A stretch of DNA of 64,000 nucleotides from a bacterium (GTDB lineage Bacteria > Patescibacteriota > Minisyncoccia > Phycocordibacterales > UBA6899): NCBI GenBank assembly GCA_043744555.1, contig JAYTUL010000042.1, positions 5,854 to 69,853 on the forward strand, given 5' to 3'. Within the stretch, counting starts at the first letter, position 1; each line of letters starts with the position of its first letter. A model generated the notes under the pieces. The model had not been told where the DNA came from. It was given only the letters and a program-made list of their open reading frames with translations, and made no database searches. Shown in pieces: positions 2,824 to 50,289 of this stretch. Made by a program: the position numbers and the translations under genes.

Positions 2824-3200
2824 TTAGAGCTTGAGCTCATTTGTAACAATATCGACAAGCTTATTCGGTGGTGTGTTTGATTTAATGAGATACATGAGCG
2901 CGCCACCCGCAAGCGCTTTCTCGATGCCCGCTTTATCAACAATATTTGAAAAAATGAGTATCGGTATTTTTGCTGTTTCAGGAGCGTTCTTTAGTTTTTC
3001 AAGCACCTCAAGCCCTGACATATCCGGAAGCATGAGATAAGGAGTATGAGGTCGGGCTTATCTGAGAATAAGGCCGATATACCCGCACCCTCAATTCCCT
3101 CACGAGTCGCGAGGATATTTGCATGTATAAATTTTTCGATGATGAGGTTGATCAAAAAAAGTATCATCCTCGATGCAAAGCATTTTTTTAGCTTCATTTA
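2824..3200 (-). pseudogene. CheY-like single-domain response regulator disrupted by two frameshifts
   Basis: Three frames together read MKKMLCIEDDTFF | LINLIIEKFIHANILATREGIEGAGISALFSDKPDLILL | (D)LMLPDMSGLEVLEKLKNAPETAKIPILIFSNIVDKAGIEKALAGGALMYLIK. One shift is at the T7 run (3146-3152). The other is a missing base at the LILLD codon near 3040. Confidence 0.6.
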
Positions 3201-3378
3201 GCACCTTTTCAGTGTAGCGCGCTCTTCCTGCTTTAGAAAGTTACTTTGGGGAAAGTACAAGATAAATAGGGAGTATGTAATTATCTTTTCCTGCGAGTAA
3301 TGATAAACAATATTTAATAAAAAGTTACTGAACATGGCTGTGTGTTGATTGTTCGGGTTATACTTGAAGAAACAAACA

Positions 3379-4496
3379 GCATGTATTCATATCACATTAA
3401 ATGGAGCGGTATATTGAGTTTTGGGTTCGTTATTTTCGCGGGGTATTTTTTGCAATCAACTTTTGCGTCAGCAAGTGTGCTCGCGGGAGTCTCAAGCGAT
3501 GTGAACATCGGAAGTGGTACACATATCACCCGCACCCTCCACTATGGCATGCGAGGAGGTGACGTAAAAAACCTGCAGGTGGACTTGAGCGAACTTATCT
3601 CGTTATATCCAAGCGGTAAAGTGACAGGTTTCTTTGGTCCCGCAACTGCGGCTGCGGTTAGTCGTTTACAAAAACAAGAAAAGGCAAATTTAGAGAGTGC
3701 TTCAAGTGCAACAAAAAGCACAACAAAACTCGGAACTGTAGATACGCAGACTGCGAATTTGATCCGCCTCCGAGTCACACAAAAAAAATGTCCGCTCGAT
3801 ATGCGTTCGCGACAAAAGTGCCTTGAAGAAAATTATACACATTATGCAAATAGCCAAGGGGTTGATATTGCGCTCCGCCTTCTTAGTCTTGAGGTGAATG
3901 AGGAGCCGCAATTTGAGGGAATGTGCCACTCGGTGATGCACCTAATCGCACACGCTGCGGTTCATGAATTTAAAAATTTCGGAGTTGCAATGAATCACGG
4001 AACAACACTATGCCAGAATGGCTATTATCATGGTGTCATCGAAGAATATCTCCGCAATGAGAATGTTGATGCGCTTTCAGGGGATGATCTGCGCAATTTT
4101 TGCCCTACGTCGTTTAAGGCTACGTCCTCTCCTACTGACACCCTTAATTGCATACACGGCATAGGGCATGCGCTCATGTATATGACCCGCAATGACCTGC
4201 CCAAGTCGCTTGTTCGCTGTGGAGATTTTTTGGATGACCATATGCGTAGTCAGTGTCTGACGGGAGCATTCATGCAAGAAGGCTTCATGGCGACCAGTTC
4301 AAAACAAAGCGTAATAGATAAGGATGTGCAAGGGTGTTCGCAAAGCCAACATCAAGATGAGTGCTTTATCGCTCTGTCTGCGAAAGCGATGCACGACAAT
4401 GGTGCAAGCGCAAAGATCGTAGAGCGCTTTTGTGACACACTTATCGACATCAACACTCAGCGAGTGTGTAAGAATGCAGTTATAAACACAAACTAA
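3379..4496 (+). CDS. Membrane-anchored protein: peptidoglycan-binding (PG_binding_1-like) domain + C-terminal Cys/His-repeat domain
   Basis: GMRGGDVKNLQVDLSELISLYPSGKVTGFFGPATAAAVSRLQK is PG-binding-like. C-terminal repeats are CHSVMHLIAHAA / CQNGYYHGVIEE / CIHGIGHALMYM / CLTGAFMQEGF. Paralog of 23270-24391. Confidence 0.65.
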
Positions 4497-4884: not shown

Positions 4885-5754
4885 GTGAAAAAGAAATACT
4901 ATTGGATAGTAGGTTGTGTGATACTTTGCTTCGTTGTATATGTGGAGCAAAGCTCAGCGCTCTTTCGCGCACCACTAGAGCGTATCGATAATACTGAAGA
5001 TGCATTCGTCGATAATATACTACTTGATCTGGGTAAGTTAAGTGATGAGCGGGTCTCACCAAAAGTATTTTTTCTTGATGTACCCATCCTCACCTATCAC
5101 CAAGTCCGCCCAATAACGGAAGTCGACGATGAGCGATACAGAAGGTTTATTACGACCCCTCTGGAGTTTGAGCGACAAATGCAGTTTATCAAAGAAGAGG
5201 GATACAACGTTATCCCACTTTCAGATGTAGTCGCGCATCTCAAAAGTAGTAAGCCACTAGAAGGGAAAAATATTGCGATCACCTTCGATGACGGATACAA
5301 AAGTCAACACACTTTTGCATTTCCGATTCTACAAAAGTTCGGCTATACAGGAACGTTTTTTATTTATACCAATGCGATCGACAAGCTGAGTGCGTCTATG
5401 ACGTGGGATGAGATCATTGATCTCGATAGTCATGGCATGAGCATCGGAGCGCATACACGAAGTCATGCAATGCTTACCACCATCAGCGATAAAAGTATAT
5501 TGCACGATGAGATCGAGGGCAGCAAAGAAGATATACAGGCACATCTAAAAAAAAATATCGATCTTTTTGCTTACCCCTTTGGAGCGCAGGATGAGTTAAT
5601 TAAAACTGAGGTAGAGCAGGCAGGTTTTACTGGAGCAGTCAGCGTAAACATGGGTCACTTACAAACTAAGACAATACGCTACGCGCTCAAACGTTATAAT
5701 GTAAACGATAATGATGTTGAATTCCGTGCGCTTCTCGTGGCAAATAAAAAATGA
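4885..5754 (+). CDS. Polysaccharide deacetylase (NodB homology domain)
   Basis: ITFDDGYKSQ (TFDDG motif), GAHTRSH (HxxxH motif) and an N-terminal TM segment. Confidence 0.8.
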   Translation: MKKKYYWIVGCVILCFVVYVEQSSALFRAPLERIDNTEDAFVDNILLDLGKLSDERVSPKVFFLDVPILTYHQVRPITEVDDERYRRFITTPLEFERQMQFIKEEGYNVIPLSDVVAHLKSSKPLEGKNIAITFDDGYKSQHTFAFPILQKFGYTGTFFIYTNAIDKLSASMTWDEIIDLDSHGMSIGAHTRSHAMLTTISDKSILHDEIEGSKEDIQAHLKKNIDLFAYPFGAQDELIKTEVEQAGFTGAVSVNMGHLQTKTIRYALKRYNVNDNDVEFRALLVANKK

Positions 5755-6513: not shown

Positions 6514-6551
6514 TGGGATAAATTCACGTGCTTGCTGTACTATTCTTTAAT

Positions 6552-7133
6552 ATGGACACTATAAGCGAAGAGGCGACAGATGAAGAGCTGGCGATACGGG
6601 TCCAAGCTGGCGACAAAGCAGCATTTGCTTCCATCATGGAGCGGTTTGAGGGTAAGTTGTTGCGCTACGGAAATAAATTCCTTGCTGAACGCGAAGACGT
6701 TGTCGATATAGTACAGGAAGTTTTCATAAGCGTGTACCAGAATATAAAAAGTTTTGATGTGTCACAAAAGTTTTCTCCGTGGATCTACCGTATCGCGCAC
6801 AACGCATTTGTAAATGGTCTCAAAAAGAAGAGCCGCAACCCCTTCGTGATGCTTGATTTTGACGCATTGCTCTCTCACACGGTAAGTGAGGACCCGCTTC
6901 GAGGTGAACGCGAGCAGGAAGAGGTGCACAAAATGATCGATGTGGGATTAGATCAAATATCGGCCAAGTACAAAGAGATCCTTATCTTGTATTATTTAGA
7001 GGAGTTGCCATACAAGGAGATTGCCGACATTCTCGAGGTGCCCACCGGTACAGTCGGCATCCGCATAAAGCGCGCAAAAGAGGCACTCAAAAAAGTTTAC
7101 GAAAAAATGCAATTCCAATATGGCGAAACATAA
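6552..7133 (+). CDS. ECF-type RNA polymerase sigma factor (the ORF could start at GTG 6528)
   Basis: DIVQEVFISVYQNIKSF...PWIYRIAHNAFVNGLKKK...ILILYYLEELPYKEIADILEVPTGTVGIRIKRAKEALKK gives regions 2 and 4 of the sigma-24 family. Confidence 0.85.
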   Translation: MDTISEEATDEELAIRVQAGDKAAFASIMERFEGKLLRYGNKFLAEREDVVDIVQEVFISVYQNIKSFDVSQKFSPWIYRIAHNAFVNGLKKKSRNPFVMLDFDALLSHTVSEDPLRGEREQEEVHKMIDVGLDQISAKYKEILILYYLEELPYKEIADILEVPTGTVGIRIKRAKEALKKVYEKMQFQYGET

Positions 7134-7851
7134 AAACCCCCCACAAATAAATATCAAGGAAAAAGTGTTTGAAAAAATAAGCGCGAACGAATTGACCATG
7201 CGCCCCAAGAGCTACTTCATTCTCAAAGCAGCAGCGCTTATCACCTTGGGAATTGCGGTACTTACGATCTCGGTGTTCGTCTGCGATTACATACTATTAA
7301 GTCTACGCATTAATGGCCACTACTCACTGCTTAGTTTTGGCTCAAGGGGTATGTGGATGTTCTTTACCTTCATTCCATGGGGCCTGCTTTTCTTTGATGG
7401 GATCTTGGTTTTCTTGCTTGAGCGTTTGCTTCGACAATTTCGTTTTGGCTATCGTACACCCGTACTTTTGCTCTTTATGGCACTGCTTATCATCACATTA
7501 TCTATTGGATTTTTTATTGACCGCGGCACTGACCTTAATGAACAGCTCCTCGCGCCCGCCCGTCACCATCAGCTCATCGCAACATTTGACGAATATTATA
7601 ATCTCGCAGGCCCCCCATCTTTAGGAGAGGGAATATGTCGCTGTGTCGTCACTGGAATAAATAATAATTCGATAAGTGCATTCGACGAGAGCCTTGGTAC
7701 GACAACCGTCTTTACAATCACCATCCCACTCAATAAATATGCAACAGGAACTCTAAAAGTCGGAGATGTCGTCTATGTTGCAGGCGATAAAGATGAGCGC
7801 GGCTTCCGCGCTTTCGGAGTACAAAAACTCGACGTAAGGGCTCGGAAGTGA
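7120..7851 (+). CDS. Membrane protein translationally coupled to the sigma factor (putative anti-sigma or sigma-associated regulator)
   Basis: The start overlaps the sigma stop by 14 nt. There is a short cytoplasmic N-terminus, 3-4 TM helices and a C-terminal soluble domain. Confidence 0.5.
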   Translation: MAKHKNPPQINIKEKVFEKISANELTMRPKSYFILKAAALITLGIAVLTISVFVCDYILLSLRINGHYSLLSFGSRGMWMFFTFIPWGLLFFDGILVFLLERLLRQFRFGYRTPVLLLFMALLIITLSIGFFIDRGTDLNEQLLAPARHHQLIATFDEYYNLAGPPSLGEGICRCVVTGINNNSISAFDESLGTTTVFTITIPLNKYATGTLKVGDVVYVAGDKDERGFRAFGVQKLDVRARK

Positions 7852-13677: not shown

Positions 13678-13783
13678 ATCCCGCTAAGGTATGGGAACTC
13701 AGCGTCCCCCGCATCCGAGAGCACACACAGGTTCGTCGTCTGTATTTCAGACAAAAGTCAGTAATAAGCGTATAGTAGAGATC

Positions 13784-14353
13784 ATGCAAAACACCAAACA
13801 GATCATACTCTCAGCCTCCCTTATTGCCGTTTTTATCCTTTTTGTCATTTATGAGAAACAAAATGCAGATTCTTCTGCTAACGCTTTCGTTGCACCCTTG
13901 GCTCAAGGCACTCCTACTGCCATCGATAAAACCCCAAGCGTGACACCCGCAGTACCTCCCGCAACACCCACAAAGCCTTACATACCAGCTCCAACTCCCA
14001 CGCAAGTAGCCATAAAACCAAGTCCCGCGGCTCCCGCTCCAGTTCCTGCGCCTACACCTAGGGTTGCCAAATACCAAGACGGCACGTTTACAGGAAAAGT
14101 TGCAGATGCCTATTTCGGCAATTTGCAAGTTGCGACTGTCATAAATAGCGGTAAGATCACTGATGTGAAATTTCTGGAATATCCAAACGATCAACCTGAG
14201 TCTCTTCAGATAAGCAACCGCACGATGCCTAAACTTAAGTCCGAGGCAATAAGTTCGCAGAGTGAAAAAGTAGATATTATTTCTGGAGCGACACAGACTT
14301 GCGAAGCATTCAATGAGTCGCTCGCAGACGCATTGTTGCAAGCAAAGGCATAA
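13784..14353 (+). CDS. Membrane-anchored FMN-binding (FMN_bind) domain protein with a flavinylation motif
   Basis: TM anchor, a Pro/Ala/Thr-rich linker, then DGTFTGKV...GKITDVKF...VDIISGATQTCEAF. The S-G-A-T motif is the ApbE flavinylation site. Confidence 0.75.
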   Translation: MQNTKQIILSASLIAVFILFVIYEKQNADSSANAFVAPLAQGTPTAIDKTPSVTPAVPPATPTKPYIPAPTPTQVAIKPSPAAPAPVPAPTPRVAKYQDGTFTGKVADAYFGNLQVATVINSGKITDVKFLEYPNDQPESLQISNRTMPKLKSEAISSQSEKVDIISGATQTCEAFNESLADALLQAKA

Positions 14354-14357
14354 GACC

Positions 14358-15107
14358 ATGAAGGAGACGAGACCGGTCATGGGTATGCCTATCACGATTG
14401 AGATATGCGACTTAAATACAGACGCACTTATAATAGAAAAAGTTTTTTCGTACTTTACGCGCACTGATGAGCGTTTCAGTACCTATAAATACGGGAGTGA
14501 GATATCACAATTAAACCGAGGTGAACTTTTGGAGCATGAGTTCAGCCCCGAAATGAAAGAAGTATTATTGCTAGCTGAAATAACTAAGCAAGAAACTCGA
14601 GGATACTTTGATATTTGCACACTGGATGGCCATTTGGATCCATCGGGTATCGTAAAGGGTCTCGCGATACTGCGCGCGGGAGCACTTATTAGGGAGGCTT
14701 CGTTTGAAAATTTTTATATTGAAGCAGGCGGTGATATTGAATCACAAGGATATAACAGTAGCGGGTTGCCCTGGCGGGTGGGAATAAAGGATCCATTCGA
14801 TCCAAAGCGCATTGTAAAGATCATTACCCCCAATGGCTCTGGTGTCGCAACCTCAGGCACATACGAAAGGGGGGAACATATCTATGATCCAATAAATAAG
14901 ACACGCACCGTGGGTGATATAATAAGCATCACGGTCGTGGGTAGAAATGTATACGAGGCCGACCGCTTTGCAACGGCAGCATTCGCCATGGGAAGTAAGG
15001 GGATAGCCTTTATAGAAGACACGCCGAACACTGAGGGCTACAGTATTGACAGTAGTGGTATAGGAACTATGACAAGTGGTTTTGATAAGTTTGTATCAGA
15101 TAAATAA
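14358..15107 (+). CDS. apbE: FAD:protein FMN transferase (ApbE family)
   Basis: VMGMPITIEI, SEISQLNRGE, SGIVKGLA, EAGGDI and ATSGTYERG are ApbE family motifs. Confidence 0.85.
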   Translation: MKETRPVMGMPITIEICDLNTDALIIEKVFSYFTRTDERFSTYKYGSEISQLNRGELLEHEFSPEMKEVLLLAEITKQETRGYFDICTLDGHLDPSGIVKGLAILRAGALIREASFENFYIEAGGDIESQGYNSSGLPWRVGIKDPFDPKRIVKIITPNGSGVATSGTYERGEHIYDPINKTRTVGDIISITVVGRNVYEADRFATAAFAMGSKGIAFIEDTPNTEGYSIDSSGIGTMTSGFDKFVSDK

Positions 15108-15112
15108 TATTT

Positions 15113-16633
15113 ATGCTTCTCACAATCGATAATTTTTTGAATAAGATAACGATGTATCGGCTGGTCCTTTATTATCTGACTGGACTTTTTTTTATCGCAC
15201 TTCTATTCGCAATATTCGGTATCCTTCCGTACTCGCCGGTTGCACTAGTCTATTCCCTTATCGTGTTACTTATGGCATGTGTACTCACGAACACATTGTT
15301 CGCACGCGTATTCGCAGTCGAGGCGAATGTTGAATCAACATATATCACCGCTTTCATTCTTGCCCTCATCATCTCTCCCGTTGCGGTAAGTGATATACAT
15401 GGTGGACTTTTCCTTGTGAGCGCGGCGGTCATCGCGATGGCTTCTAAGTTCGTCTTTGCCATCGATCGAAAGCATATCTTTAATCCCGCGGCATTTGCAG
15501 TCGCCATCACCGCGGCAACCATGGGTAACTCTGCAAGCTGGTGGGTGGGCGGCAATATCCCCATGATCCTATTTGTGGTGATCGGAGGAGTGCTCGTGGT
15601 GCGGAAGATTCGCCACGTCGATCTGATGGTCGCTTTTTTTGTAGCTGCGCTCGTAAGTGTTGCCTTATTTGCACGCGCGGGAGCCGACCCGCTACTGTCG
15701 ATGCAAAAAGCCCTTACACATTCGCCTATTTTATTTCTTGCGTTTGTCATGCTCACCGAGCCACTCACGACACCTCCCACACGAAAGCTGCGCATACTTT
15801 ATGCAGGACTTGTGGGATTACTCTATTCGCCAGCAGTGCACCTCGCGAGTATTTATTCAACTCCGGAGCTTGCGCTCTTGGTCGGAAATATATTTTCATA
15901 CTGCGTGAGCCCCAAAGGTAAACTTCTCCTTCGTCTGAAAGAGATAAAAAGCATCGCTTTCGGAACTCAAGAATATGTTTTTGATGCTCCCACAATACCC
16001 GAGTTCAAATCCGGTCAATATATGGAATGGACTCTAGGGCAAGCACACATCGATAGTCGTGGTAATCGCAGGTACTTCACTATCGCTTCCTCGCCCACTG
16101 AACCGACCATCCGTCTTGGGGTGCGCATGTACCCTAATGCGAGTACATTCAAAAGTACGCTCGCGACACTGAGTCCTGGTGACACCCTGATCGCAGGGCA
16201 ACTTGCAGGAGATTTTGTCTTGCCCGAAGATAAGAAACAAAAATTAGTTTTTATTGCTGGCGGTATCGGCGTAACTCCTTTTCGCAGCATGATCAAATAC
16301 ATGCTTGATACGAATGAGAAGCGAACAATCACGCTCATGTATTCGAACAAAACAGCGTCTGAGATCGCATACAAAGAACTTTTTGAGGAAGCAGCAGAAA
16401 AACTCGGTATTAAGAATGTTTATACTCTCACAGATGAAATTCCTAAGGATTGGAGTGGTCGCACGGGATTCATTAGTAGGACGATGATCGAAGAAGAGGT
16501 GCAGGATCACCTAGAGAGTATGTTCTATATTTCAGGTCCACAGGCAATGGTCGCCACTTTTGAGAAAACACTTTCAGAAATGGGCATTCCAAAGAGTCAT
16601 ATCAAAACTGACTTTTTCCCAGGTTTCGCCTGA
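15113..16633 (+). CDS. Fusion of an RnfD/NqrB-like membrane domain to an NqrF/FNR-like FAD + NAD(P)H oxidoreductase domain
   Basis: The N-terminal domain has KHIFNPAAFAVAI (compare RnfD NPFNPAM) and MLTEPLTTPPTRKLRILYAGLVGLL (compare RnfD [25 protein letters not shown]). Where RnfD has SGAT it has SMQK. The C-terminal domain has RYFTIASSP (RxYS FAD motif), GGIGVTPF (NAD motif) and YISGPQAM. Confidence 0.75.
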   Translation: MLLTIDNFLNKITMYRLVLYYLTGLFFIALLFAIFGILPYSPVALVYSLIVLLMACVLTNTLFARVFAVEANVESTYITAFILALIISPVAVSDIHGGLFLVSAAVIAMASKFVFAIDRKHIFNPAAFAVAITAATMGNSASWWVGGNIPMILFVVIGGVLVVRKIRHVDLMVAFFVAALVSVALFARAGADPLLSMQKALTHSPILFLAFVMLTEPLTTPPTRKLRILYAGLVGLLYSPAVHLASIYSTPELALLVGNIFSYCVSPKGKLLLRLKEIKSIAFGTQEYVFDAPTIPEFKSGQYMEWTLGQAHIDSRGNRRYFTIASSPTEPTIRLGVRMYPNASTFKSTLATLSPGDTLIAGQLAGDFVLPEDKKQKLVFIAGGIGVTPFRSMIKYMLDTNEKRTITLMYSNKTASEIAYKELFEEAAEKLGIKNVYTLTDEIPKDWSGRTGFISRTMIEEEVQDHLESMFYISGPQAMVATFEKTLSEMGIPKSHIKTDFFPGFA

Positions 16634-20221: not shown

Positions 20222-20965
20222 CTAACTGAGTTGAGTCGCAAGTCTGATGATGAGATATAGCGTACCCGCACCGAGTAAGGTCATCACGGTCGTCATCTGC
20301 ACAGGATGTTCGTGGTGGCTTTCTGGGAGAAGATCGCTCGGGCCGATGTACAGAAAAAATCCAGTGAAGAGCGCAAGCAAAAGTCCGAGCGTGGTATCAC
20401 TTACGGTAAAAAACATTGTCGCAATTATTCCCAAGAGGGGAGTTAGTGCATCGACAAGTAGCCAGCGAAACGCGCGGGCCTTATCGCCGTGATGTTTCAT
20501 TATAAAACTGACGGTATTGATACCGTCTGAGAAATCATGGCTCAGTACTGCAACTGCAACGACGATGCCTACTGTATTTGAAACCTTGAATGCAAGTCCA
20601 ATGCCGATGCCGTCGAGCAAGCTGTGTATCGAAAGTGTACCTGCACCGAATGCTCCACGTGCTTGTTCTCCGCTCCTTGTGACATGCGGGTCGTCCCCCT
20701 CATGATCGTGTAGGTGAAGTGTGACCATGCGGTCAAGCGTGAGGTATAGCAAGAAACCAAGCGCAATAACACCTGCTACCATCTGTGCTCCGTATGTGCC
20801 CATTGCAAGTTCGAACGCTTCCGGCATGAGATCAAAGAATGCGACGCCAATGACCGCACCTGCGGAAAAACCCAAAATGAGATGCAGTCGATCTTTGAGG
20901 TGTATAGCGAACAACCCTCCAAGGAGTGTTGCAAAAAATGTAGCGATACCGATTAGAATGATCAT
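20222..20965 (-). CDS. zupT: ZIP-family metal (zinc) permease. The ORF-track call extends N-terminally into zur; the internal start MIILIGIATFF is more likely
   Basis: HDFSDGINTVSF plus His-rich loops (HLHDHEGDDPH) and 8 TM helices. Confidence 0.8.
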   Translation of the reverse strand: MIILIGIATFFATLLGGLFAIHLKDRLHLILGFSAGAVIGVAFFDLMPEAFELAMGTYGAQMVAGVIALGFLLYLTLDRMVTLHLHDHEGDDPHVTRSGEQARGAFGAGTLSIHSLLDGIGIGLAFKVSNTVGIVVAVAVLSHDFSDGINTVSFIMKHHGDKARAFRWLLVDALTPLLGIIATMFFTVSDTTLGLLLALFTGFFLYIGPSDLLPESHHEHPVQMTTVMTLLGAGTLYLIIRLATQLS

Positions 20966-20975
20966 AGATATATAA

Positions 20976-21419
20976 TTATACTTTAACTTGTTTTGCGCAT
21001 TTTTTACAACGACCAAAGAATTCAAGCGAGTGGTCAAGAGTGCCCGCAAACTTAATCGACCTTCTGAGTACAGCTTGCTCGATAAGTGCAATATTGCATT
21101 CGGGGACATCCTCCGTCAGTCCGCATGACCTACAGATAAGATGATGATGGTGCTCAGTTTCTAGGCGCAGTTCGTAGTGGGCATGCCCATGCTGCATATC
21201 AACTTGTCTTACTACTGAAACCGCAAGCAGTGAGTCTAGCGTGCGATACACGGTTGCCTGATCAACTTTCCCACCAAGTTTTTTGAGTATCTCTTGGGTT
21301 GTGAGTGGATGATCGGCGTTTTTGAGGACAGCAAGCAACAATAGTCGTGCGGGCGTAGCTTTATAGCCGTTTTCTCTAAGAACGGCGGAAAATTTCTCAA
21401 GTGATGGTGAAGCAAGCAT
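20976..21419 (-). CDS. zur: Fur-family regulator, probably Zur
   Basis: ATPARLLLLAVL...VYRTLDSL...HHHHLICRSCG...CKKC. It sits directly upstream of the ZIP gene. Confidence 0.8.
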   Translation of the reverse strand: MLASPSLEKFSAVLRENGYKATPARLLLLAVLKNADHPLTTQEILKKLGGKVDQATVYRTLDSLLAVSVVRQVDMQHGHAHYELRLETEHHHHLICRSCGLTEDVPECNIALIEQAVLRRSIKFAGTLDHSLEFFGRCKKCAKQVKV

Positions 21420-22012: not shown

Positions 22013-22549
22013 ATGAAATGTCCTACTTGCGTTACTCAATCGTTACAAGAACTCATGCTCGGAGATTCTCATGTGCATTCATGCAGAGAGTGCCGTGGTG
22101 TATGGATCGGAAAAGAAGATCTAATGAAAGGTGAAAAGATGAATCCAGAAAAGCACTGGTTGAATATCGAGCTGTGGGAAAATAAACAAAAAATAAACGC
22201 CAAAGCTTCAGAAAAGATCTGCCCTGTATGCAGTACCACACTTATGTCTATCGATCAGCATGATAGAGATTTGTCCGTCGATATGTGTAAGTCGTGTGGT
22301 GGTCTATGGCTTTCAGGTGGAGAATATCAAAAAGCGCTCGATATGCTGAAAGATGATGCAGATGGAGAGATAATGGATAACTACGCCCTAACCTTGGCCA
22401 CTCAACTAAAAGAGGTTGTTACAGGACCCAAGGATCTTACAAACGAGCTTGCAGACGTGTGGACGGTCATGAAATTCTTTCAGTGGAAAGTCGCCGCACA
22501 GCATCCTGTCCTTACTGAACTGTTTGAAGAACTGCCATTCACTCGCTAA
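22013..22549 (+). CDS. Tandem zinc-ribbon protein (zf-TFIIB-like domains)
   Basis: CPTC...HVHSCRECRGVWIGKEDL and CPVC...CKSCGGLWLSGGEY are two CxxC...CxxCxGxW modules. Confidence 0.6.
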   Translation: MKCPTCVTQSLQELMLGDSHVHSCRECRGVWIGKEDLMKGEKMNPEKHWLNIELWENKQKINAKASEKICPVCSTTLMSIDQHDRDLSVDMCKSCGGLWLSGGEYQKALDMLKDDADGEIMDNYALTLATQLKEVVTGPKDLTNELADVWTVMKFFQWKVAAQHPVLTELFEELPFTR

Positions 22550-22567
22550 CTTTTAATATTTATCTCT

Positions 22568-23170
22568 ATGATGACCCTTGCGCGTGATCTGTATAAATTG
22601 CTCCTTCCTAATGTGCAACTCAATAAGAGTCTACGTATTTTGGTGACGGTGAGTGTGCTCATGAACTTTGTTATTGGCATGTTCTCGCCGTTTTATGCGA
22701 TCTTCGTACAAAAAATAGGCGGCGATATCGCACTCGCGGGAGTAACGTGGGCGGTATTTGAGATAGTTTGTGGAGTGCTGACGCTACTGTTTACGCGCTG
22801 GTCGCTTCGTGTGAGGGAACAAGAGCTCCTCTTGGCGCTCGGCTACATTCTTCGCGCGGGAGTATTCTTAAGCTATGCTTTCATGACAACTATGCTTCAG
22901 CTCATCCTTACGCAAGTACTGTGGGGGATTGCCGCAGCCATCGGCGTGCCCGCCTTTGATGCCGTGTTTTCGTCGCATACAAGCAAAGACAGCTCCATTG
23001 CTGAGTGGGGAGGACTTGAGGGAGTGACATCAATTGCCGTCGGTGTGGCTGCACTAGTGGGTGGATATGCCATCAAGGCATTCGGATTTCAAATTATATT
23101 TTTCGGCATGTCCGCTATCTCGGTCATGCTAGCTATATACATATGGCGTCTTCCTCGCGAGGTGCTCTAG
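22568..23170 (+). CDS. Six-TM half-MFS-like protein (possible remnant of a 12-TM MFS transporter)
   Basis: 200 aa with about 6 TM helices resembling the C-terminal half of MFS permeases. No N-terminal half is upstream. Confidence 0.4.
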   Translation: MMTLARDLYKLLLPNVQLNKSLRILVTVSVLMNFVIGMFSPFYAIFVQKIGGDIALAGVTWAVFEIVCGVLTLLFTRWSLRVREQELLLALGYILRAGVFLSYAFMTTMLQLILTQVLWGIAAAIGVPAFDAVFSSHTSKDSSIAEWGGLEGVTSIAVGVAALVGGYAIKAFGFQIIFFGMSAISVMLAIYIWRLPREVL

Positions 23171-23269: not shown

Positions 23270-24391
23270 CTAAAGCGTCCTTAAGTAGGAGTAGCCAGTT
23301 TCGAGGCAGTTAAGGCGGAAACGTTCGGGGAGAGTGAAGCAGAATTGGCGCGCTTCTTTATCGCGATGAAAATATGAGATGAAGTCTTTTACGGCGCCGG
23401 TTACGCAATTTTTAAATTGGTTGTCATCTTGTGCCAGTGCGCAATGCGCATTTGTGCGCACGGGGTCACTCACGCTATTACCCGAGGCATCACGCCCCAC
23501 AGACTGCGCGCAGGTATCACGGAAGTCCGCATCTACACCCGCGCATAATTTGAAGGCATTCGCAAAGTCGTAGTTCGTCTGACTGAGCGCATGTGAGGTC
23601 TGCATCAAATAGCATTGCTCTTTATATTTGGCATCAACTGCATTGCACGGATACATAAGGTCGTCTTTCTTGAGATATTTTGCATAGTGATTACGATTGT
23701 CGACCATAATGTTCTCCATGAACGTACCGCCATAGCAGGATTTGCGCTCCCAATCGCCCGACAGCTGATCGCACATACTAAGGGTTTTAAAAAGCTCATT
23801 GTGGGTAAGCGCCATGAGACCGTGCCCTAATCCGTGCACGCAATTATAGTAATCAAAACTGTAGCGTTCTTTGCCTGGAATATTGGCACAAAGTGTATTT
23901 GCACTCGCCATGAACTGTAGAGCGCCAATATTCTCGACCGCACGCTCAACAACTCCATGGTAGTAACCCGACCAGCAAAAACTGTCACCGTTGAGAAATG
24001 CTTTGGTGATATTTCCGCCATAGAGTTCTGCGGCAGTGTTTCCGATCGCATGCGCAAGCTGATGGCAATCAGAAACGACCTCTCCCGTGTGAGCGAACTG
24101 TTTTTTCAAGTCACCCATGGCAACTTTGGGTCCAAGTGCGCGGGTGATGACCTCAACGTGACGCTTTTCACAAGTAAATGTCTGCGTCGCGCCTATACAA
24201 TGAATAGAAACTGCTGGAACATAAGGGGTCGAGTGGTGCGTGAGCAGGTAAATCAAAATTGCAAGAAATATCGAGACAAGTATAAGTAAAAACAGTTTTT
24301 GGGCTTTATTTTGGACTTTATTATAGAGCCTTTGCATGATGTAGATTATTGTAGCGCAAACGCACCCACCTGCAATGCGGTTATCTGGCAC
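23270..24391 (-). CDS. Membrane-anchored Cys/His-repeat protein, paralog of 3379-4496
   Basis: CHQLAHAIGNTA / CWSGYYHGVVER / CVHGLGHGLMAL / CYGGTFMENIMV in the same order and spacing as in the 3379-4496 protein, with additional C-terminal Cys pairs. Confidence 0.65.
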   Translation of the reverse strand: MPDNRIAGGCVCATIIYIMQRLYNKVQNKAQKLFLLILVSIFLAILIYLLTHHSTPYVPAVSIHCIGATQTFTCEKRHVEVITRALGPKVAMGDLKKQFAHTGEVVSDCHQLAHAIGNTAAELYGGNITKAFLNGDSFCWSGYYHGVVERAVENIGALQFMASANTLCANIPGKERYSFDYYNCVHGLGHGLMALTHNELFKTLSMCDQLSGDWERKSCYGGTFMENIMVDNRNHYAKYLKKDDLMYPCNAVDAKYKEQCYLMQTSHALSQTNYDFANAFKLCAGVDADFRDTCAQSVGRDASGNSVSDPVRTNAHCALAQDDNQFKNCVTGAVKDFISYFHRDKEARQFCFTLPERFRLNCLETGYSYLRTL

Positions 24392-24489
24392 TTACTCAAG
24401 TAGCGTTTCGAGGGCGTGCTCGAAGAGCTCGCGATAACAAATTTCAAGTTGCCGATGTGCGCAACCAAGGCTCGCGTTCTCGCATTTCA

Positions 24490-24910
24490 TGGATTCAGCG
24501 GACATTAGATTCAGGCAGATATGAATAATTTGGGTAATTCGCTTCGCGCTGCTTGGCACTTTTTTCGGCGATTGATCTATCGAACCATGGTCAGTCTGTG
24601 GCGCCTTACGAAGAGGCGATGCGCGGGAAAATTTCTTCGATGATCCCCTTAGTACGAGCAGTAAATGTCGCAATATACAAAGCCTTGCCACTCAAGTCCG
24701 ATCGCCCGATTCCACTTTATCTTATTGGGATACAGCGCAGGTGCAATTGCGCTCCTTACGTTCTTGCAGCACTTTCCGTCAGTTCAAAAGTACATAGCGG
24801 GAATCGTGATCGTAGGCGGTGCATTTCAGGTCGACCACACTGCGCGGGCGTGGCTTCTTGAGCATTCTTACCTTGCACGACTGGTAAACAAGCTCATGTT
24901 TTGGGAATAA
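24490..24910 (+). pseudogene. Frameshifted N-terminal remnant of an alpha/beta-hydrolase
   Basis: Frame 1 reads ...AIDLSNHGQSVAPYEEAM...SDRPIPLYLIG and frame 2 reads ILLGYSAGAIALLTFLQ...IVIVGGAFQVDH. Together they give DxxxHGxS plus the GYSAG nucleophile elbow. The C-terminal half is absent. Confidence 0.5.
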
Positions 24911-25007
24911 ACACCGCCTTATCTGAGGTAGTTTTTATTTTTTAGATCATAACATGATACACTCATCAAACATTTAGTAGGTGGTCTTTATAAAATATTT
25001 TTATATG

Positions 25008-25373
25008 TTGAACGAATTTAAAGCATTTGCGATGAAGGGGAATGTCATTGATCTGGCGATCGGTGTCGTCATTGGTGGCGCGTTTGGTGCAATCGTTTCC
25101 TCTCTTGTCGGCGATATTATTATGCCGCTAATTGGCGCAATCACTGGTGGTATTGATTTTTCGGGACTCCACGTTTCTATAGGTAGTGCTTCTATCGCTT
25201 ATGGAAAGTTCATTCAGTCCGCGTTCATTTTTGTCATCGTTGCGTTTGTGCTTTTTATGGTAGTGAAGGCTATGAATAAAATGAAGAAAGAAGATGAAAA
25301 ATTACCTGAGGTTAAAGCGGATTCCGCTGAATTTAAGGTCCTGATAGAGATCCGAGACCTTCTAAAGAAATAA
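25008..25373 (+). CDS. mscL: Large-conductance mechanosensitive channel
   Basis: [44 protein letters not shown] matches the MscL N-terminus and TM1. Confidence 0.85.
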
Positions 25374-26721: not shown

Positions 26722-28260
26722 ATGAAACAACAGAGACCTACAAACCACACCCACTGGGCAAAGCAAAAACCTGAACTATATATGCTTGCCGGCCTCTTTG
26801 TGTCCTGCATGGCCATAGTGATGGCGGGTAACACCCTTCTGCCCGCCTCACAGTCTATCGCCAACTCTTCTCCCGCACTCTTGTATAAAGTAGCGATGAA
26901 TGAAGAGATGCATCGACCGACCGTCAGTGTTCCGGAAGCAGGAAAATTGATCGCGGTCGACTTGAATTCAATGGAGCTGTCACTTTATGAAGATAGCGTA
27001 AAGGAAAAGACATTCACCATACTTTCTCGTGGCAGAGAGGGTACAGCATGGGAAACTCCGACGGGAAAATATAGAATACAGTCAAAAGAGCTGAAACACC
27101 TCTCAAGCATAGGCGGTACGTGGATGCCGTACAGTATGCAATTTTATGGAAATTTTTTCATTCATGGCTGGCCAACATACAAGAATGGAGAGAACGTGCC
27201 CGTCGGTTATTCGGGGGGGTGCATCCGTATGTCGACCGCGGACGCAAGTGAAGTGTATGCATTTGCAGCACTCGGAACTCGCGTCATTGTGAGTGGCGGG
27301 ACCTCAAAAGATACATATGCGACAACTTCACGCTATTACCTGCATCTGCCAGAAAAGTCAGACTCATTAGTGGCAGAAAAGATCTTGCCGACTGTTACCG
27401 CCCCGTCCTTTGTTGTCTCAGATGCGATGACAGGAGATGTGTTGTGGGAGCGCGGTGCCTCACATGCACTTTCGCCTGGGGCGCTTGTTTCACTCGCGAC
27501 CGCCCTCACTGCGGTCGAGACAGTCAACCAATATAAGATCGTGCGCATGGGTGAGCTACTGCTCGGGAAGTCCGTCTTGCGTAAGGAGACACTTGGATAT
27601 GCTGATGAGCTGCCGGTTGGAACCCTTATCTATCCGCTTCTGTATGACACGAGCGACACAGCAGCAAAAGTATTCTCACGTGAACACGGTGAACGAAAGT
27701 TTAAGTCATACATGAACGAAAAAGCGGAAGCGATAGGAATGAACGCGACGCATTTTGGGGGAGGGTCATCGCAAGATGCATCGACCTCGACTGCTCGCGA
27801 CCTTGATATGCTTTTGCGTTACACTCTCTTGCATAAACATTTTCTTGTCGCAGCCTCATTGTCGAGTAAGCGCACTATTGTTGATAGCGATGGGAACCGT
27901 CGCTTCGAATGGGAAAATAAGAACCCGTGGGTACAGAACGGCGACCCCGCTTATCGCGGTGGCATCGCAAAAGAAGAAGATGACGGAAGTGGTAGTGCGA
28001 TGACACTTTTTGATCTGCCCGTGTCTGAATTTGGCGCGAGGACGATAGCGATAGTTATCCTTGGTTCGAAGGATCTTAAGGGAGATGTTTCGGTGCTCAA
28101 ACAATTTGTTGCTGATTACTACGTCTATGATATCGAGCGCAAAGAACAGTTCACCCACGAGGGGATGGAGCCAACGCCCTCACTTTATCAAAAAGCTTCG
28201 ACCTTGCTTGGTCTTGAGAAACTTTTGAAGCAAGACATCGTTTATGATCGCGAGATATGA
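26722..28260 (+). CDS. L,D-transpeptidase (YkuD domain) fused to a C-terminal serine-peptidase S11/PBP5-like domain that appears catalytically degenerate
   Basis: YkuD: FIHGWP...GYSGGCIRM. The C-terminal domain has S11-like SFVVSDAMTGDVLWERGASHALSPGALVSLATAL, but SxxK reads S-L-A-T and no clear SxN or KTG is present. Confidence 0.65.
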   Translation: MKQQRPTNHTHWAKQKPELYMLAGLFVSCMAIVMAGNTLLPASQSIANSSPALLYKVAMNEEMHRPTVSVPEAGKLIAVDLNSMELSLYEDSVKEKTFTILSRGREGTAWETPTGKYRIQSKELKHLSSIGGTWMPYSMQFYGNFFIHGWPTYKNGENVPVGYSGGCIRMSTADASEVYAFAALGTRVIVSGGTSKDTYATTSRYYLHLPEKSDSLVAEKILPTVTAPSFVVSDAMTGDVLWERGASHALSPGALVSLATALTAVETVNQYKIVRMGELLLGKSVLRKETLGYADELPVGTLIYPLLYDTSDTAAKVFSREHGERKFKSYMNEKAEAIGMNATHFGGGSSQDASTSTARDLDMLLRYTLLHKHFLVAASLSSKRTIVDSDGNRRFEWENKNPWVQNGDPAYRGGIAKEEDDGSGSAMTLFDLPVSEFGARTIAIVILGSKDLKGDVSVLKQFVADYYVYDIERKEQFTHEGMEPTPSLYQKASTLLGLEKLLKQDIVYDREI

Positions 28261-46536: not shown

Positions 46537-49500
46537 ATGGACAACAATGAAGACAAGAAAATGGGCAATGCCCGTGCAGGGAAAGATGGAGAGATGAGCG
46601 TATCAGCGCGCGAAGAAGCTATACAGAAATTCTGGAAAGACAATTCTATCTTCGAGAAAACCCTTGATGCCAATAAAGACAAGGAGCCATATGTCTTCTA
46701 TGACGGCCCGCCGTTTGCAACCGGACTTCCGCACTACGGCCATCTGCTTGCAGGCACTATTAAAGACGTCGTGCCACGCTTTCAAACCATGCGAGGTCGC
46801 TACGTCCGCCGCGAGTGGGGCTGGGATTGTCACGGACTGCCTATCGAGAACCTCATCGAGAAAGAGTTGGGATTTAAGACTAAGAAGGACATCGAGGAGT
46901 ACGGCATCGAGAACTTCAATCAAAAAGCGCGCGAAAGCGTGCTGACGTACGACAAAGAGTGGCGCTCGATAGTCGAGCGCATGGGTCGCTTTGTCGACAT
47001 GGACAAAGGATACAAGACCATGGACGCCACTTATACCGACTCCATCTGGTGGGCATTCAAAACCCTTCACGACAAGAAGCTCATCTATGAGGGATTCAAG
47101 TCGATGCACGTCTGCCCGCGCTGCGAGACAACTCTCGCCATATCTGAGGTAGGTATGAACTATAAAGATGTGAAAGATATTTCCGTCTATGTAAAATTCG
47201 AACTTGTCGATGAACCGAATACGTTTCTCGTCGCGTGGACTACGACACCTTGGACCCTTCCGGGTAATGTTGCACTTGCGATCGGTGCTGATATTGAATA
47301 CGTAAAAGTGAGTGCAACCCCGAGCGTTGCAGTAAATAATAAAAGGTCTGACGGATCGTATCATGAGCCTGAACGCTGGGAAGAATTTTATATATTCGCC
47401 AAAGCTCGCCTTGAACCGATGCAGATGTTGGCGCAAAAAGAGGGGAAGGATATGGAAGTTGTTGGTACTTTCAAAGGCTCCGATCTAGTTGGGAAGTCAT
47501 ACAAGCCGCTGTTTGATTATTATGCTGCAGATGAAAAGCTCGAGAATCGCGAGAATGGCTGGAAAATTTATGCGGCGGATTTTGTGACCGCAGAAGATGG
47601 TACGGGTATTGCGCATGAGGCACCCGCATTTGGTGAAGTCGACATGGAGCTCGGAAAAAAGATGAAACTTCCATTCATTCAGCATGTGAGTATGAATGGC
47701 GAGATCAAGCCTGAAGTAAAAGAATTTGCAGGATTATCGGTAAAACCCAAGTCCGATGATGACAAGGTCCGTCTTGGTACTGATATAGCAGTGCTTAAGT
47801 ATTTGCAAGAACATGGACTGTTCTTCGCAAAGGAAAATATCAACCATTCCTATCCGCACTGTTGGCGCTGTGACACCCCACTCTTGAATTACGCTGCCTC
47901 CTCGTGGTTCGTTGACGTTATCAAACTCAAACCGCGCTTGTTAGAGGAGAACAAAGAGATTTCGTGGATACCCGAGCACATGGGTGAAGGTCGCTTTGGC
48001 AAGTGGCTCGAGGGCGCGCGTGACTGGGCGATATCACGAACCCGCTACTGGGGTGCCCCTATTCCGGTTTGGAAATGCAACAAATGCGCAAAGACCGAGG
48101 TCATAGGTAGTTCCGAAGAGTTGAAGAGTAAACTAACTTCAGGCAATACCTATTTTGTCATGCGCCATGGTGAGTCCGAGAGTAATGTGAAAGGCATCGT
48201 CAGCTATAAGCCGGAAGATCCGTTCCCGCTTACTGGGAAGGGCGAAGGTGAGGTCAAAGCTACCGCCAAGAAACTAGAAGCGCTCCTCAAGAGCCAAGAA
48301 AAGAGCATAGACTTCATCATCGCCTCGCCGGTGCTCCGGACCAAGCAGACCGCACTTCTCGTCTCAGAAGCACTAGGGCTTTCGCGCGAGCAGGTCATCT
48401 TTGACGAACGCATCGCCGAAGTGAATACTGGCGAGTTCAATGGCTGCTCGATAGAAGACTATCGTAGTCAATTTTCCGATACGCTTGAGAAATTTTACAA
48501 ACGTCCACCGAATGGTGAGACCCTTGAAGAGATGAAATCACGCATCGCAGCGTTTCTTTACGATGTAGATGCCAAGTATAAAGGCAAGACCATTCTCTTC
48601 GTTACACATGAGTACTGTGTGTGGATGATGCAGGCGGCGGCGCGAGGTGCGACCAACGAGGAGGCTTCACGAATGCGTGAGGTGAGCGAGGAAGATTTTA
48701 TCCTGACTGGTGAATCTCGCGAATTCCACTTCGCTCCGCTCTCGCACAATCGTAGATACGAGCTTGATTTTCACCGTCCCTTTGTCGATGTGCAAACGAC
48801 GTACCAATGTAGCTGCGGCTTAGGCACGATGACGCGCGTTTCTGACGTCTTCGACTGTTGGTTCGAGTCAGGAGCGATGCCGTTCGCACAGTTCCACTAC
48901 ATGGGTGACGAGCGCACAGAAGACGGCAAGCATTTCATCAAAAATTTCCCTGCGGACTTTATTGCTGAAGGAATAGATCAAACGCGCGGATGGTTCTACA
49001 CACTCCTTATCCTTTCCACCGGCCTTTTTGACCGCTCGCCCTACAAGAGCGTCATAGTCAATGGCTTGATCCTCGCTGAAGACGGGCAAAAGATGTCCAA
49101 GAAACTTAAAAACTATCCTGACCCGATGGAAGTGGTGGCAAAGTATGGTGCAGACGCACTCCGCTACTACTTGCTGTCTTCACCTGCGGTACGCGGAGAA
49201 GAATTACGCTTCGTCACAGCAGGTGTCGATGAGGTATTCAAAAAGATAACTCTACGTATTGGAAATGTCCGCTCGTTCTATGAGATGTACCAAGGACAGG
49301 AGCCAATTTCGCGCGAATCACCCAAGAGTACGAATGTGCTCGATCAGTGGATCCTTGCGCGTTTCCTTGAGGCGCATGCAGAGATAACGCATTTCCTCGA
49401 TAATCACGAGCTCGACCGTGCAGCTCGCCCCGTACTTCCGTTTGTTGACGACCTTTCTACGTGGTATCTGCGCCGCTCACGTGATCGCTTCAAGAATCAA

Positions 49501-50289
49501 TCAAATAATTCCTCATCTGTTTCGTTGCGGAACCCCGCCGATTCGTCACCATATGAGAATATGCCTCCATCATCGGCCTCCCCGCGCCTCACATCTGAGG
49601 TTTCTTTGATCGATTCTCCCGCTCTTGAAGCAACTCGGACTACGGGCTGGATACTTTTTCAATTCGCAAAACTCATCGCACCCTTCATGCCTTTCCTTGC
49701 CGAGGATATCTATCAGCGACTTAGTATCGAAAACAAGAAAGAGAGCGTTCATCTTGAAAGTTGGAATAATGTAGGCATCGCTGCAAGCACCATCTTGGCA
49801 GATATGGAAGAAGTGCGGCGTTTGGTCACGCTCGCACTCGACGCGCGGGTCAAAGCGGGGATCAAGGTGCGCCAACCACTCGCCCTGCTTTCGGTGAACG
49901 CGAGAACACTGAAGAATAAAGATGCATTGCTTGCGATCATCGCAGATGAGGTGAACGTCAAGAAGATACTCCTTACTGATCAGATCGATTCGAGTGCGGT
50001 AATCCTCGATACCGTCATCACACCCCTACTTAAAGATGAAGGCATATTACGCGACCTCATCCGACTCATCCAAGAAAATCGTAAGAGGCTTGAGCTTGTC
50101 CCTGACAATGCCATTTGTCTCACATATCAAGGTGACCCCGCCATTGAAGCACTAGTTGAAAAATATAAAAAAGAGCTCGAAAGTGCTGCAAACATAACTC
50201 TATTTGAGAAGAAGCTCCAGGAAGGTGGCACGCTCGCCCTTAAAGACGCAAGCTCTAGCGGACTCACAATCGCCATTCGCAAGGTATAA
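46537..50289 (+). CDS. ileS: Isoleucine--tRNA ligase (type 2, 'HYGH') carrying an in-frame histidine-phosphatase-like insertion of about 200 aa and a second Ser/Pro-rich insertion
   Basis: PPFATGLPHYGHLLAGTIKD, KMSKKLKN (KMSKS), WISR..., RRSRDRF and APFMPFLAEDIYQRL are all present and colinear. The extra length (1250 aa versus about 1040-1100) is accounted for by the two inserts. Confidence 0.95.
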   Translation: MDNNEDKKMGNARAGKDGEMSVSAREEAIQKFWKDNSIFEKTLDANKDKEPYVFYDGPPFATGLPHYGHLLAGTIKDVVPRFQTMRGRYVRREWGWDCHGLPIENLIEKELGFKTKKDIEEYGIENFNQKARESVLTYDKEWRSIVERMGRFVDMDKGYKTMDATYTDSIWWAFKTLHDKKLIYEGFKSMHVCPRCETTLAISEVGMNYKDVKDISVYVKFELVDEPNTFLVAWTTTPWTLPGNVALAIGADIEYVKVSATPSVAVNNKRSDGSYHEPERWEEFYIFAKARLEPMQMLAQKEGKDMEVVGTFKGSDLVGKSYKPLFDYYAADEKLENRENGWKIYAADFVTAEDGTGIAHEAPAFGEVDMELGKKMKLPFIQHVSMNGEIKPEVKEFAGLSVKPKSDDDKVRLGTDIAVLKYLQEHGLFFAKENINHSYPHCWRCDTPLLNYAASSWFVDVIKLKPRLLEENKEISWIPEHMGEGRFGKWLEGARDWAISRTRYWGAPIPVWKCNKCAKTEVIGSSEELKSKLTSGNTYFVMRHGESESNVKGIVSYKPEDPFPLTGKGEGEVKATAKKLEALLKSQEKSIDFIIASPVLRTKQTALLVSEALGLSREQVIFDERIAEVNTGEFNGCSIEDYRSQFSDTLEKFYKRPPNGETLEEMKSRIAAFLYDVDAKYKGKTILFVTHEYCVWMMQAAARGATNEEASRMREVSEEDFILTGESREFHFAPLSHNRRYELDFHRPFVDVQTTYQCSCGLGTMTRVSDVFDCWFESGAMPFAQFHYMGDERTEDGKHFIKNFPADFIAEGIDQTRGWFYTLLILSTGLFDRSPYKSVIVNGLILAEDGQKMSKKLKNYPDPMEVVAKYGADALRYYLLSSPAVRGEELRFVTAGVDEVFKKITLRIGNVRSFYEMYQGQEPISRESPKSTNVLDQWILARFLEAHAEITHFLDNHELDRAARPVLPFVDDLSTWYLRRSRDRFKNQSNNSSSVSLRNPADSSPYENMPPSSASPRLTSEVSLIDSPALEATRTTGWILFQFAKLIAPFMPFLAEDIYQRLSIENKKESVHLESWNNVGIAASTILADMEEVRRLVTLALDARVKAGIKVRQPLALLSVNARTLKNKDALLAIIADEVNVKKILLTDQIDSSAVILDTVITPLLKDEGILRDLIRLIQENRKRLELVPDNAICLTYQGDPAIEALVEKYKKELESAANITLFEKKLQEGGTLALKDASSSGLTIAIRKV

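Follow-up and report, generated by a model that had tools for sequence, protein, structure and literature searches.

A candidate extracytoplasmic copper module in Patescibacteria: a predicted Cys-stapled alpha-solenoid with an invariant His5-Met cluster

Accessory extracytoplasmic copper modules are already known as a kind. CopC, YcnI and YtkA are such modules, with a role in buffering or handing off copper comparable to the one considered below, and in YcnJ of Bacillus subtilis CopC, CopD and YtkA follow one another in that order, the first and the last being extracellular (PMC12362106). The Csp copper storage proteins are built differently, as Cys-lined four-helix bundles (PMC5171941). Here we describe a gene, called copy 2, on the reverse strand of a 64,000-nucleotide stretch of the Patescibacteria contig JAYTUL010000042.1 (the window, by which we mean this whole stretch); it encodes a membrane-anchored Cys/His-rich protein of a family that has a second member, copy 1, in the same window (Table 1). 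Our reading, which we hold with moderate confidence, is that the copy-2 protein faces outward, is a solenoid stapled by disulfides, and uses a cluster of five His residues and one Met (His5-Met) to bind copper, which it either buffers or passes on. What is new is the family together with its fold context and ligand set, none of which is described in Pfam, NCBIfam, the PDB or the searchable literature: searches of Pfam, NCBIfam and PDB sequences with single sequences and with profiles returned nothing for the shared domain, and a search of the literature on CopD accessory domains, on copper in Patescibacteria and on the domain's own sequence motifs found no description of it.

The strongest functional evidence for copper is the company that the domain keeps within single proteins. 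CopC-CopD-domain proteins of ~780–830 amino acids (aa) account for 22 of the 148 top representative clusters, and a Cys-less cupredoxin-like module is found in 10 more of these 148; among the collected proteins this module occurs in 16 of 279, one of which also matches plastocyanin/azurin. The CopC-CopD fusions consist of a signal peptide, CopC, eight transmembrane (TM) helices and then the domain, which is therefore placed outside, on the same side as CopC; Pfam and NCBIfam searches of these fusions recognize CopC and CopD only, and nothing in the C-terminal 330 aa. Given the domain order of YcnJ, the domain thus occupies the YtkA position, and in one such fusion (P0194) the CopC part retains, as read from its sequence, the mature N-terminal His and the DGH motif. 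The fusion that places the domain in this slot is found in Actinomycetota, and the stand-alone anchored protein in many Patescibacteria and DPANN archaea. The family accordingly resembles two described arrangements, following an eight-TM CopD module as the YtkA domain of YcnJ does, and also occurring as a stand-alone protein on a single TM anchor as YcnI (DUF1775) does. It differs from YtkA, CopC and YcnI in having no sequence relationship to them, in being predicted as an all-alpha solenoid rather than a beta-sandwich, and in having as candidate ligands five internal His and one Met rather than an N-terminal histidine brace; copy 2 itself has no Pfam or NCBIfam match to CopC, CopD, YtkA or DUF1775, and the cupredoxin domain (PF13473 / PF00127) is absent from both window paralogs by Pfam scan. 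When the cupredoxin-like module of the fusions is aligned to amicyanin, the position of the type-1 Cys is taken by an Asp within an HDH motif, so the module may bind copper rather than shuttle electrons. In one Saccharibacteria locus (L037) it is a separate gene directly after the homolog, and in a relative at 67% identity a DUF1775 (YcnI-type) gene lies 3.3 kb from the homolog.

Within the domain, the candidate ligands are H92, H96, H127, H168, H172 and M207 (numbered as in copy 2). A pair of HxxxH motifs supplies four of the His and the fifth stands by itself; together with the Met they are spread over four long helices in succession, with flanking glycines (SGYYHG, HGxGHG, GGxFM). Conservation and Cys-pair statistics were compiled over 322 domain instances, in which the five His are 99–100% invariant and M207 is 98% invariant; the full pattern is retained in 317. 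Position 131 is occupied by E, Q, D, M, K or still other residues and is therefore not essential; position 208 is either E or Q. Nearly all copies within giant multi-copy proteins retain the set; in the two degenerate ones, H96, H127, H168 and M207 are lost jointly and replaced by R, R, Y and Y. All six candidate ligands are present in both window paralogs, and in copy 2 they stand in the motifs C91-H92-x3-H96, C121-x5-H127-x3-E131, C166-x-H168-x3-H172 and C201-x5-M207-E208-N209. We infer that the cluster is a predicted binding site for one or two metal ions, the metal most probably being copper. A sequence-only reading of this stretch had overlooked both the invariant cluster and the recurrent CopC-CopD and cupredoxin-like fusions, that is, the signal that points to copper.

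The AlphaFold model of copy 2, built with 38 sequences (pLDDT 91, pTM 0.81), has the TM helix followed by fifteen helices that alternate between long (17–22 residues) and short (5–15, mostly 8–9), and copy 1, modelled independently from an 11-sequence alignment (pLDDT 76), has the same all-alpha pattern following its peptidoglycan (PG)-binding domain. Foldseek searches of the PDB with both models returned only HEAT/ARM/TOG/TPR solenoids, at E>=0.05 and TM<=0.3, and these models place the domain among the alpha-solenoids, with no known fold specifically related to it. The last six repeats follow the spacing C-x10-15-C (10–11 in five of the six) and then ~22 residues; in the model the first Cys of a pair lies at the end of the short helix or in the loop, and the second about six residues into the next long helix, in its second turn. 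Comparison of repeat sub-alignments by hhalign gave no significant internal sequence repeat, several pairs giving no result; the one exception was the pair of HxxxH helices, which aligned over 19 aa at E=2e-4. The ~34-aa periodicity is therefore a structural one, resting on Cys spacing only. The family set of Cys pairs (47-56, 150-166, 189-201, 231-242 and 265-276, together with the 91-121 variant) is present in both window paralogs, and the pairs other than the variable C91/C121 are ~100% conserved. C91 and C121 occur together in 254 instances and are jointly missing in 66, and no scorable instance has Cys at just one of the two positions; an alternative pair, C117/C125, is present as two Cys in 72 instances and never as one. 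This strictly pairwise gain and loss fits disulfide staples, of which copy 2 would probably have eight; paired metal ligands would show the same covariation.

Two groups of helical-repeat proteins invite comparison. In Hcp (Helicobacter cysteine-rich) repeats a Cys pair is thought to staple two helices, with a Cys spacing shorter than C-x10/11-C, and the present family resembles Sel1-like and Hcp proteins in being a secreted alpha/alpha-repeat solenoid with a Cys pair per ~34–36-aa repeat, the pairing here being deduced from covariation. It is unlike them in that no Sel1 or TPR Pfam match was obtained at E<=1 in any of 29 members, and Hcp proteins are not known to have either the His5-Met cluster or copper-related fusions. 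The HEAT/ARM-type proteins, which are its best structural neighbours, include deoxyhypusine hydroxylase, a HEAT-repeat di-iron enzyme whose conserved ligands lie on successive repeat helices and which is a precedent for a solenoid metal site. From these proteins, that enzyme included, the family is set apart by the weak Foldseek scores just given, by its extracytoplasmic location and probable Cys staples, and by the use of HxxxH motifs rather than His-Glu pairs.

Table 1. Features of the copy-2 gene, its paralog and the adjoining pseudogene in the window, with genes found upstream of homologs in other loci (coordinates there are those of the locus named).
Feature	Coordinates	Strand	Basis and remarks
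Copy-2 gene, membrane-anchored Cys/His solenoid protein	23270..24337	(-)	355 aa; family profile E=3.8e-154
Signal-anchor TM helix, N-terminal (residues 15-33), after K/R-rich cytoplasmic tail	24239..24295	(-)	hydropathy 3.01; AlphaFold helix 2-32
N-terminal cap Cys pair C47-C56	24170..24199	(-)	both Cys in 264 instances, single in 2
Metal-cluster region (predicted), residues 91-209, four successive long helices	23711..24067	(-)	conservation; AlphaFold helices
Four C-terminal helix-turn-helix repeats, ~34 aa each, a C-x10/11-C pair apiece	23306..23647	(-)	AlphaFold model, Cys counts, profile alignment
Copy-1 paralog: signal peptide, PG_binding_1 (~3552-3680), short form of shared domain (~3789-4493)	3342..4496	(+)	BLASTP, Pfam, profile E=3.1e-90, own structural model
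Alpha/beta-hydrolase pseudogene, N-terminal half only, between copy-2 gene and mscL	24374-24889	(+)	multiple in-frame stops
MsrA gene upstream of homolog, L036	5288-5785		
MsrA gene upstream of homolog, L048	5193-5726		
MsrA gene upstream of homolog, L056	1598-1960		
MsrA gene upstream of homolog, L047	2909-3271		
MsrA gene upstream of homolog, L076	601-1110		

The open reading frame (ORF) proposed by the sequence-only reading, 23270..24391 on the reverse strand, is present, and an extension up to the GTG at 24391 is possible; because translation from the ATG at 24337 gives a product identical in length and sequence to the database protein P0001, the shorter frame is taken as the gene, and this ATG is the likelier start. 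The proposed N-terminal TM anchor was borne out by the hydropathy peak (scored in a 19-residue window), by the K/R-rich N-terminus and by the AlphaFold helix, and a TM helix preceded by such a tail places the rest of the protein outside the cell. The predicted metal-cluster region contains the Cys pairs C91-C121, C150-C166 and C189-C201, and the C-terminal repeats contain 231-242, 265-276, 299-311 and 333-344. The last two of these repeats are missing from copy 1 and from most tandem copies, so that C299-C311 and C333-C344 are the two extra pairs of copy 2 relative to copy 1; the nine further Cys counted earlier were slightly off, there being eight after the fourth motif, four of them with counterparts in copy 1. 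A promoter and terminator scan around the copy-2 gene gave nothing exceeding background.

Pairwise alignment (BLASTP, 28% identity over 186 aa, E=1e-18) supports the earlier suggestion that the two window genes are genuine, diverged paralogs sharing an extracytoplasmic Cys/His domain; in this alignment the motifs CHxxxH, CxxGYYHGV, NCxHGxGH and CxxGxFM are in register between both copies. By profile alignment copy 1 has all five His, the Met and 12 Cys columns in common with copy 2; the profile scores in Table 1 come from a family profile (A3) in which both sequences were included. Copy 2 does lack the PG-binding domain, which in copy 1 is recognized by Pfam as PG_binding_1 (residues 71-113, E=9e-7). 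The further suggestion of a lineage-expanded envelope family did not hold. A family-profile search of the six-frame translation of the window matched exactly two ORFs and no third copy, and the spread of the family across many Patescibacteria classes, Actinomycetota, Gemmatimonadota and DPANN is too broad for a lineage-specific expansion; only the PG-binding offshoot, with 10 proteins in the homolog search, is lineage-restricted.

This breadth is apparent at every level of search. For the TM-anchored form, a search at E<=1e-3 yielded at least 2,008 homologs, every one of them unnamed or "hypothetical" and without a Pfam domain in the shared region, and a profile of both forms run against 1.84 billion representative proteins (clusters defined at 50% identity) matched at least 7,169 clusters at E<=1e-3, with 1,593 at E<=1e-30. 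In contigs representing one genome per species, 419 loci were confirmed, the majority in Patescibacteria: Lloydbacteria and Paceibacteria are closest, followed by Saccharibacteria and by Doudna-, Kaiser-, Peregrini- and Gracilibacteria. Outside this group the carriers include Rubrobacteraceae and other Actinomycetota and the Nano- and Woesearchaeota (DPANN), at 44–48% identity, and named members also comprise one Gemmatimonadaceae protein and fusion proteins of Euzebyaceae. Independent homologs of copy 2 range from 44 to 88% identity, and the His5-Met Cys-stapled solenoid family is, as judged from these sequences, broad and old.

The copy-2 product is a type-II membrane-anchored protein. Outside the membrane it is predicted to form an all-alpha solenoid, made of helix-turn-helix repeats in which a Cys pair probably acts as a staple. 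If the copper reading is right, H92/H96, H127, H168/H172 and M207, on the first four long helices, would bind one or two metal ions, probably copper, which could then be buffered, or passed to or from membrane transporters or cuproproteins. Copy 1, with its signal peptide and PG-binding domain, would be wall-bound, and the wall-bound and membrane-anchored copies may represent two stations of a copper relay. Tandem arrangements in other organisms also bear on this proposal, with up to 14 profile matches in one protein, P0132, in which seven full-length copies were confirmed, six of them with an intact cluster; tandem full-length copies in one protein fit a binding module better than a catalytic one. 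P0132, a protein of 3,580 aa encoded on an 831-kb contig, has its domain copies followed by a GH3 N-terminal domain and LRV/HEAT repeats, and in one internal copy the His/Met cluster has become R, R, Y, Y.

Several observations weigh against a copper-binding or hand-off role. When the window was searched for genes of the CopC, CopD, YcnI, cupredoxin-like and b5-like kinds, none was found; CopC, CopD and YcnI served as phmmer seeds, and for YtkA the search consisted of a Pfam scan of the two paralogs. The metal genes nearest to copy 2 are instead a Fur-family regulator and a ZIP transporter, 2–3 kb away, which would suit zinc or iron, and neighbourhood clustering across 79 loci found no universal conserved neighbour of the homologs. 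Identity is 44–48% between Patescibacteria, Rubrobacteraceae and DPANN and conservation is very high along the whole domain, a pattern seen more often in enzymes than in simple metal carriers. The electron-carrier-like partners (b5-domain and cupredoxin-like) likewise keep an enzyme in view, and the PG_binding_1 and GH3 fusions point to the cell wall rather than to a metal.

The most serious alternative, which we nevertheless consider unlikely, is a copper-dependent redox enzyme in which His3 and His2Met sites, or a His-rich binuclear centre, would act on an envelope substrate or on Cu(II) with electrons supplied by a b5- or cupredoxin-like partner. The non-coupled binuclear copper monooxygenases use His3 plus His2Met as their ligands, and the domain has Gly beside its His residues (HGxGHG), conserved motifs (FMEN, MQTS, GRDASG, KDF) spread over the whole solenoid, and the cross-domain identity noted above. 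A TM-anchored cytochrome-b5-domain gene, whose product matches PDB entries 6vz6 (E=3e-10) and 6nzx (E=1e-9), immediately follows the homolog in 11 of 79 loci, both in Saccharibacteria and in Actinomycetota, and the cupredoxin-like module, fused or adjacent, would be a second candidate donor. However, this b5 partner is found in 14% of loci only, the fused cupredoxin-like module has no type-1 Cys, and tandem full-length copies as in P0132 are unusual for a catalytic domain. Moreover, the domain has no likeness to a known copper enzyme family in Pfam, NCBIfam or the PDB and no PDB fold match at E<0.05, so that the similarity is one of ligand inventory only. The broader version of this proposal, that the domain represents an unrecognized class of copper enzymes acting outside the cytoplasm, with a disulfide-stapled alpha-solenoid as framework, His3/His2Met sites and b5- or cupredoxin-like electron partners, and widespread in Patescibacteria, DPANN and Actinomycetota, seems to us a little more doubtful still; one possible activity would be that of a cupric reductase or oxidase linked either to import of the CopD type or to chemistry in the envelope.

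Rather less plausible is an envelope scaffold or binding module for wall glycans, partner surfaces or host surfaces, in which the His cluster would hold a structural metal such as zinc, or none. The structural neighbours are indeed HEAT/ARM/TPR-like solenoids only, the domain is found in giant multi-copy surface proteins, copy 1 carries PG_binding_1 and the 3,580-aa giant its GH3 and LRV/HEAT parts, and a CWB2-domain protein is encoded upstream of one fusion gene. Such a module would, however, leave unexplained both the 98–100% invariance of five His and one Met and the repeated, independent CopC-CopD and cupredoxin-like fusions.

It is improbable that the 16 cysteines act as thiolate ligand pairs storing several Cu(I) ions, in a sponge functionally like Csp. 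The domain is, like the Csp proteins, all-alpha, Cys-rich and copper-associated, its 16 invariant Cys lie in a copper-linked protein, strict pairwise gain and loss is also expected of paired ligands, and many carriers of the family are anaerobes. Against this, the C-x10/11-C spacing connects a helix end with the second turn of the helix that follows, which is the geometry of a staple, and is unlike the CxxxC/CxxC rows that line the core of a bundle; the invariant functional residues are His and Met; and the domain is extracytoplasmic and is also present in aerobic Actinomycetota. Single-sequence and profile searches of all PDB chains gave no relevant match to solved Csp structures, nor did the domain match any PDB chain by sequence. 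Least probable of all is a component of zinc or iron acquisition controlled together with the nearby Fur-family regulator and ZIP transporter: His-rich sites bind zinc too, and Fur lies beside ZnuA in the relative L003, but in the window other genes on opposite strands intervene and the copy-2 gene is convergent with its neighbour, the invariant Met and the copper-specific fusion partners favour copper, and the Fur/ZIP linkage was rejected as functional evidence because the adjacency is kept neither in the closest relative (L086) nor in distant loci.

The surroundings of the metal genes and of the homologs yielded some observations in their own right. In the window the Fur ORF (20976-21419) overlaps the ZIP ORF (20222-21109), both on the reverse strand, and in L003, where Fur is instead next to ZnuA, a DUF1775/YcnI-type gene is nearby. 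In about five loci of Saccharibacteria and Paceibacterota a signal-less MsrA gene lies directly upstream of the homolog and co-directional with it, stop and start often overlapping (Table 1); because this MsrA has no signal peptide, the linkage was not used as evidence. MscL, DedA, six-TM MFS and DUF2238 neighbours were rejected as partners, their synteny being confined to close relatives. Near copy 1, a 69-aa ORF just upstream (2824-3033, reverse strand) matches the receiver profile of response regulators at positions 51-109 only and is likely a truncated remnant. A polysaccharide deacetylase is encoded immediately downstream (4885-5754, forward strand), and next come the gene for an ECF-type sigma factor and, adjoining it, a 243-aa ORF without family (6528-7851, forward strand); ECF sigma genes recur near homologs in 8 of 79 loci.

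The copy-2 gene is monocistronic, convergent with an MFS-like gene on one side and divergent from a pseudogene and mscL (24981-25373) on the other. The gene remnants that had been reported beside it were found upstream and not downstream. Upstream, translation of 24332-24982 on the forward strand meets many in-frame stops. The relative L086 encodes an intact alpha/beta hydrolase of 374 aa, and in a tblastn comparison the pseudogene covers its residues 11-182 with 56% aa identity; at the nucleotide level, 493 nt align with 81% identity. L086 is the closest relative, its domain protein being 87% identical, and the intact hydrolase occupies the same position there; in the relative L003, two intact hydrolases and a 163-aa gene are found at the position of the pseudogene. 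Downstream, the six-TM MFS-like gene (22568-23170) was rejected as a remnant because its homologs in relatives have the same length, 200 aa in the three closest relatives looked up, with homologs of similar length in seven related loci. The segment that contains it (22013-23170, forward strand) encodes a 178-aa protein with two Zn_ribbon_TFIIB motifs and then this 200-aa, half-size MFS-like protein, again with the same lengths in the relatives looked up.

Elsewhere in the window, all on the forward strand, three consecutive genes (13691-16633) encode an FMN_bind protein (220 aa), an ApbE flavin transferase (264 aa) and a 506-aa protein in which an NQR2/RnfD-like membrane domain is fused to an NAD-binding one, and look like an extracytosolic flavinylated electron-transfer cluster. 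A 1,250-aa class-I aminoacyl-tRNA synthetase (46537-50289; tRNA-synt_1 and Anticodon_1) has its catalytic domain split by a histidine-phosphatase (His_Phos_1) insert at residues 540-713. A 512-aa protein (26722-28260), found in L086 as well, joins a YkuD L,D-transpeptidase domain to a Peptidase_S11 D-Ala-D-Ala carboxypeptidase domain, and a 410-aa membrane protein (1081-2313) has four DUF347 repeats.

Should copper indeed be bound by this family, a new fold would be added to the repertoire of extracytoplasmic copper trafficking, and the His5-Met cluster would provide a clean ligand set for biochemistry. It would also offer an entry point to metal acquisition in ultra-small, host-dependent lineages, most of whose envelope proteins lack annotation.

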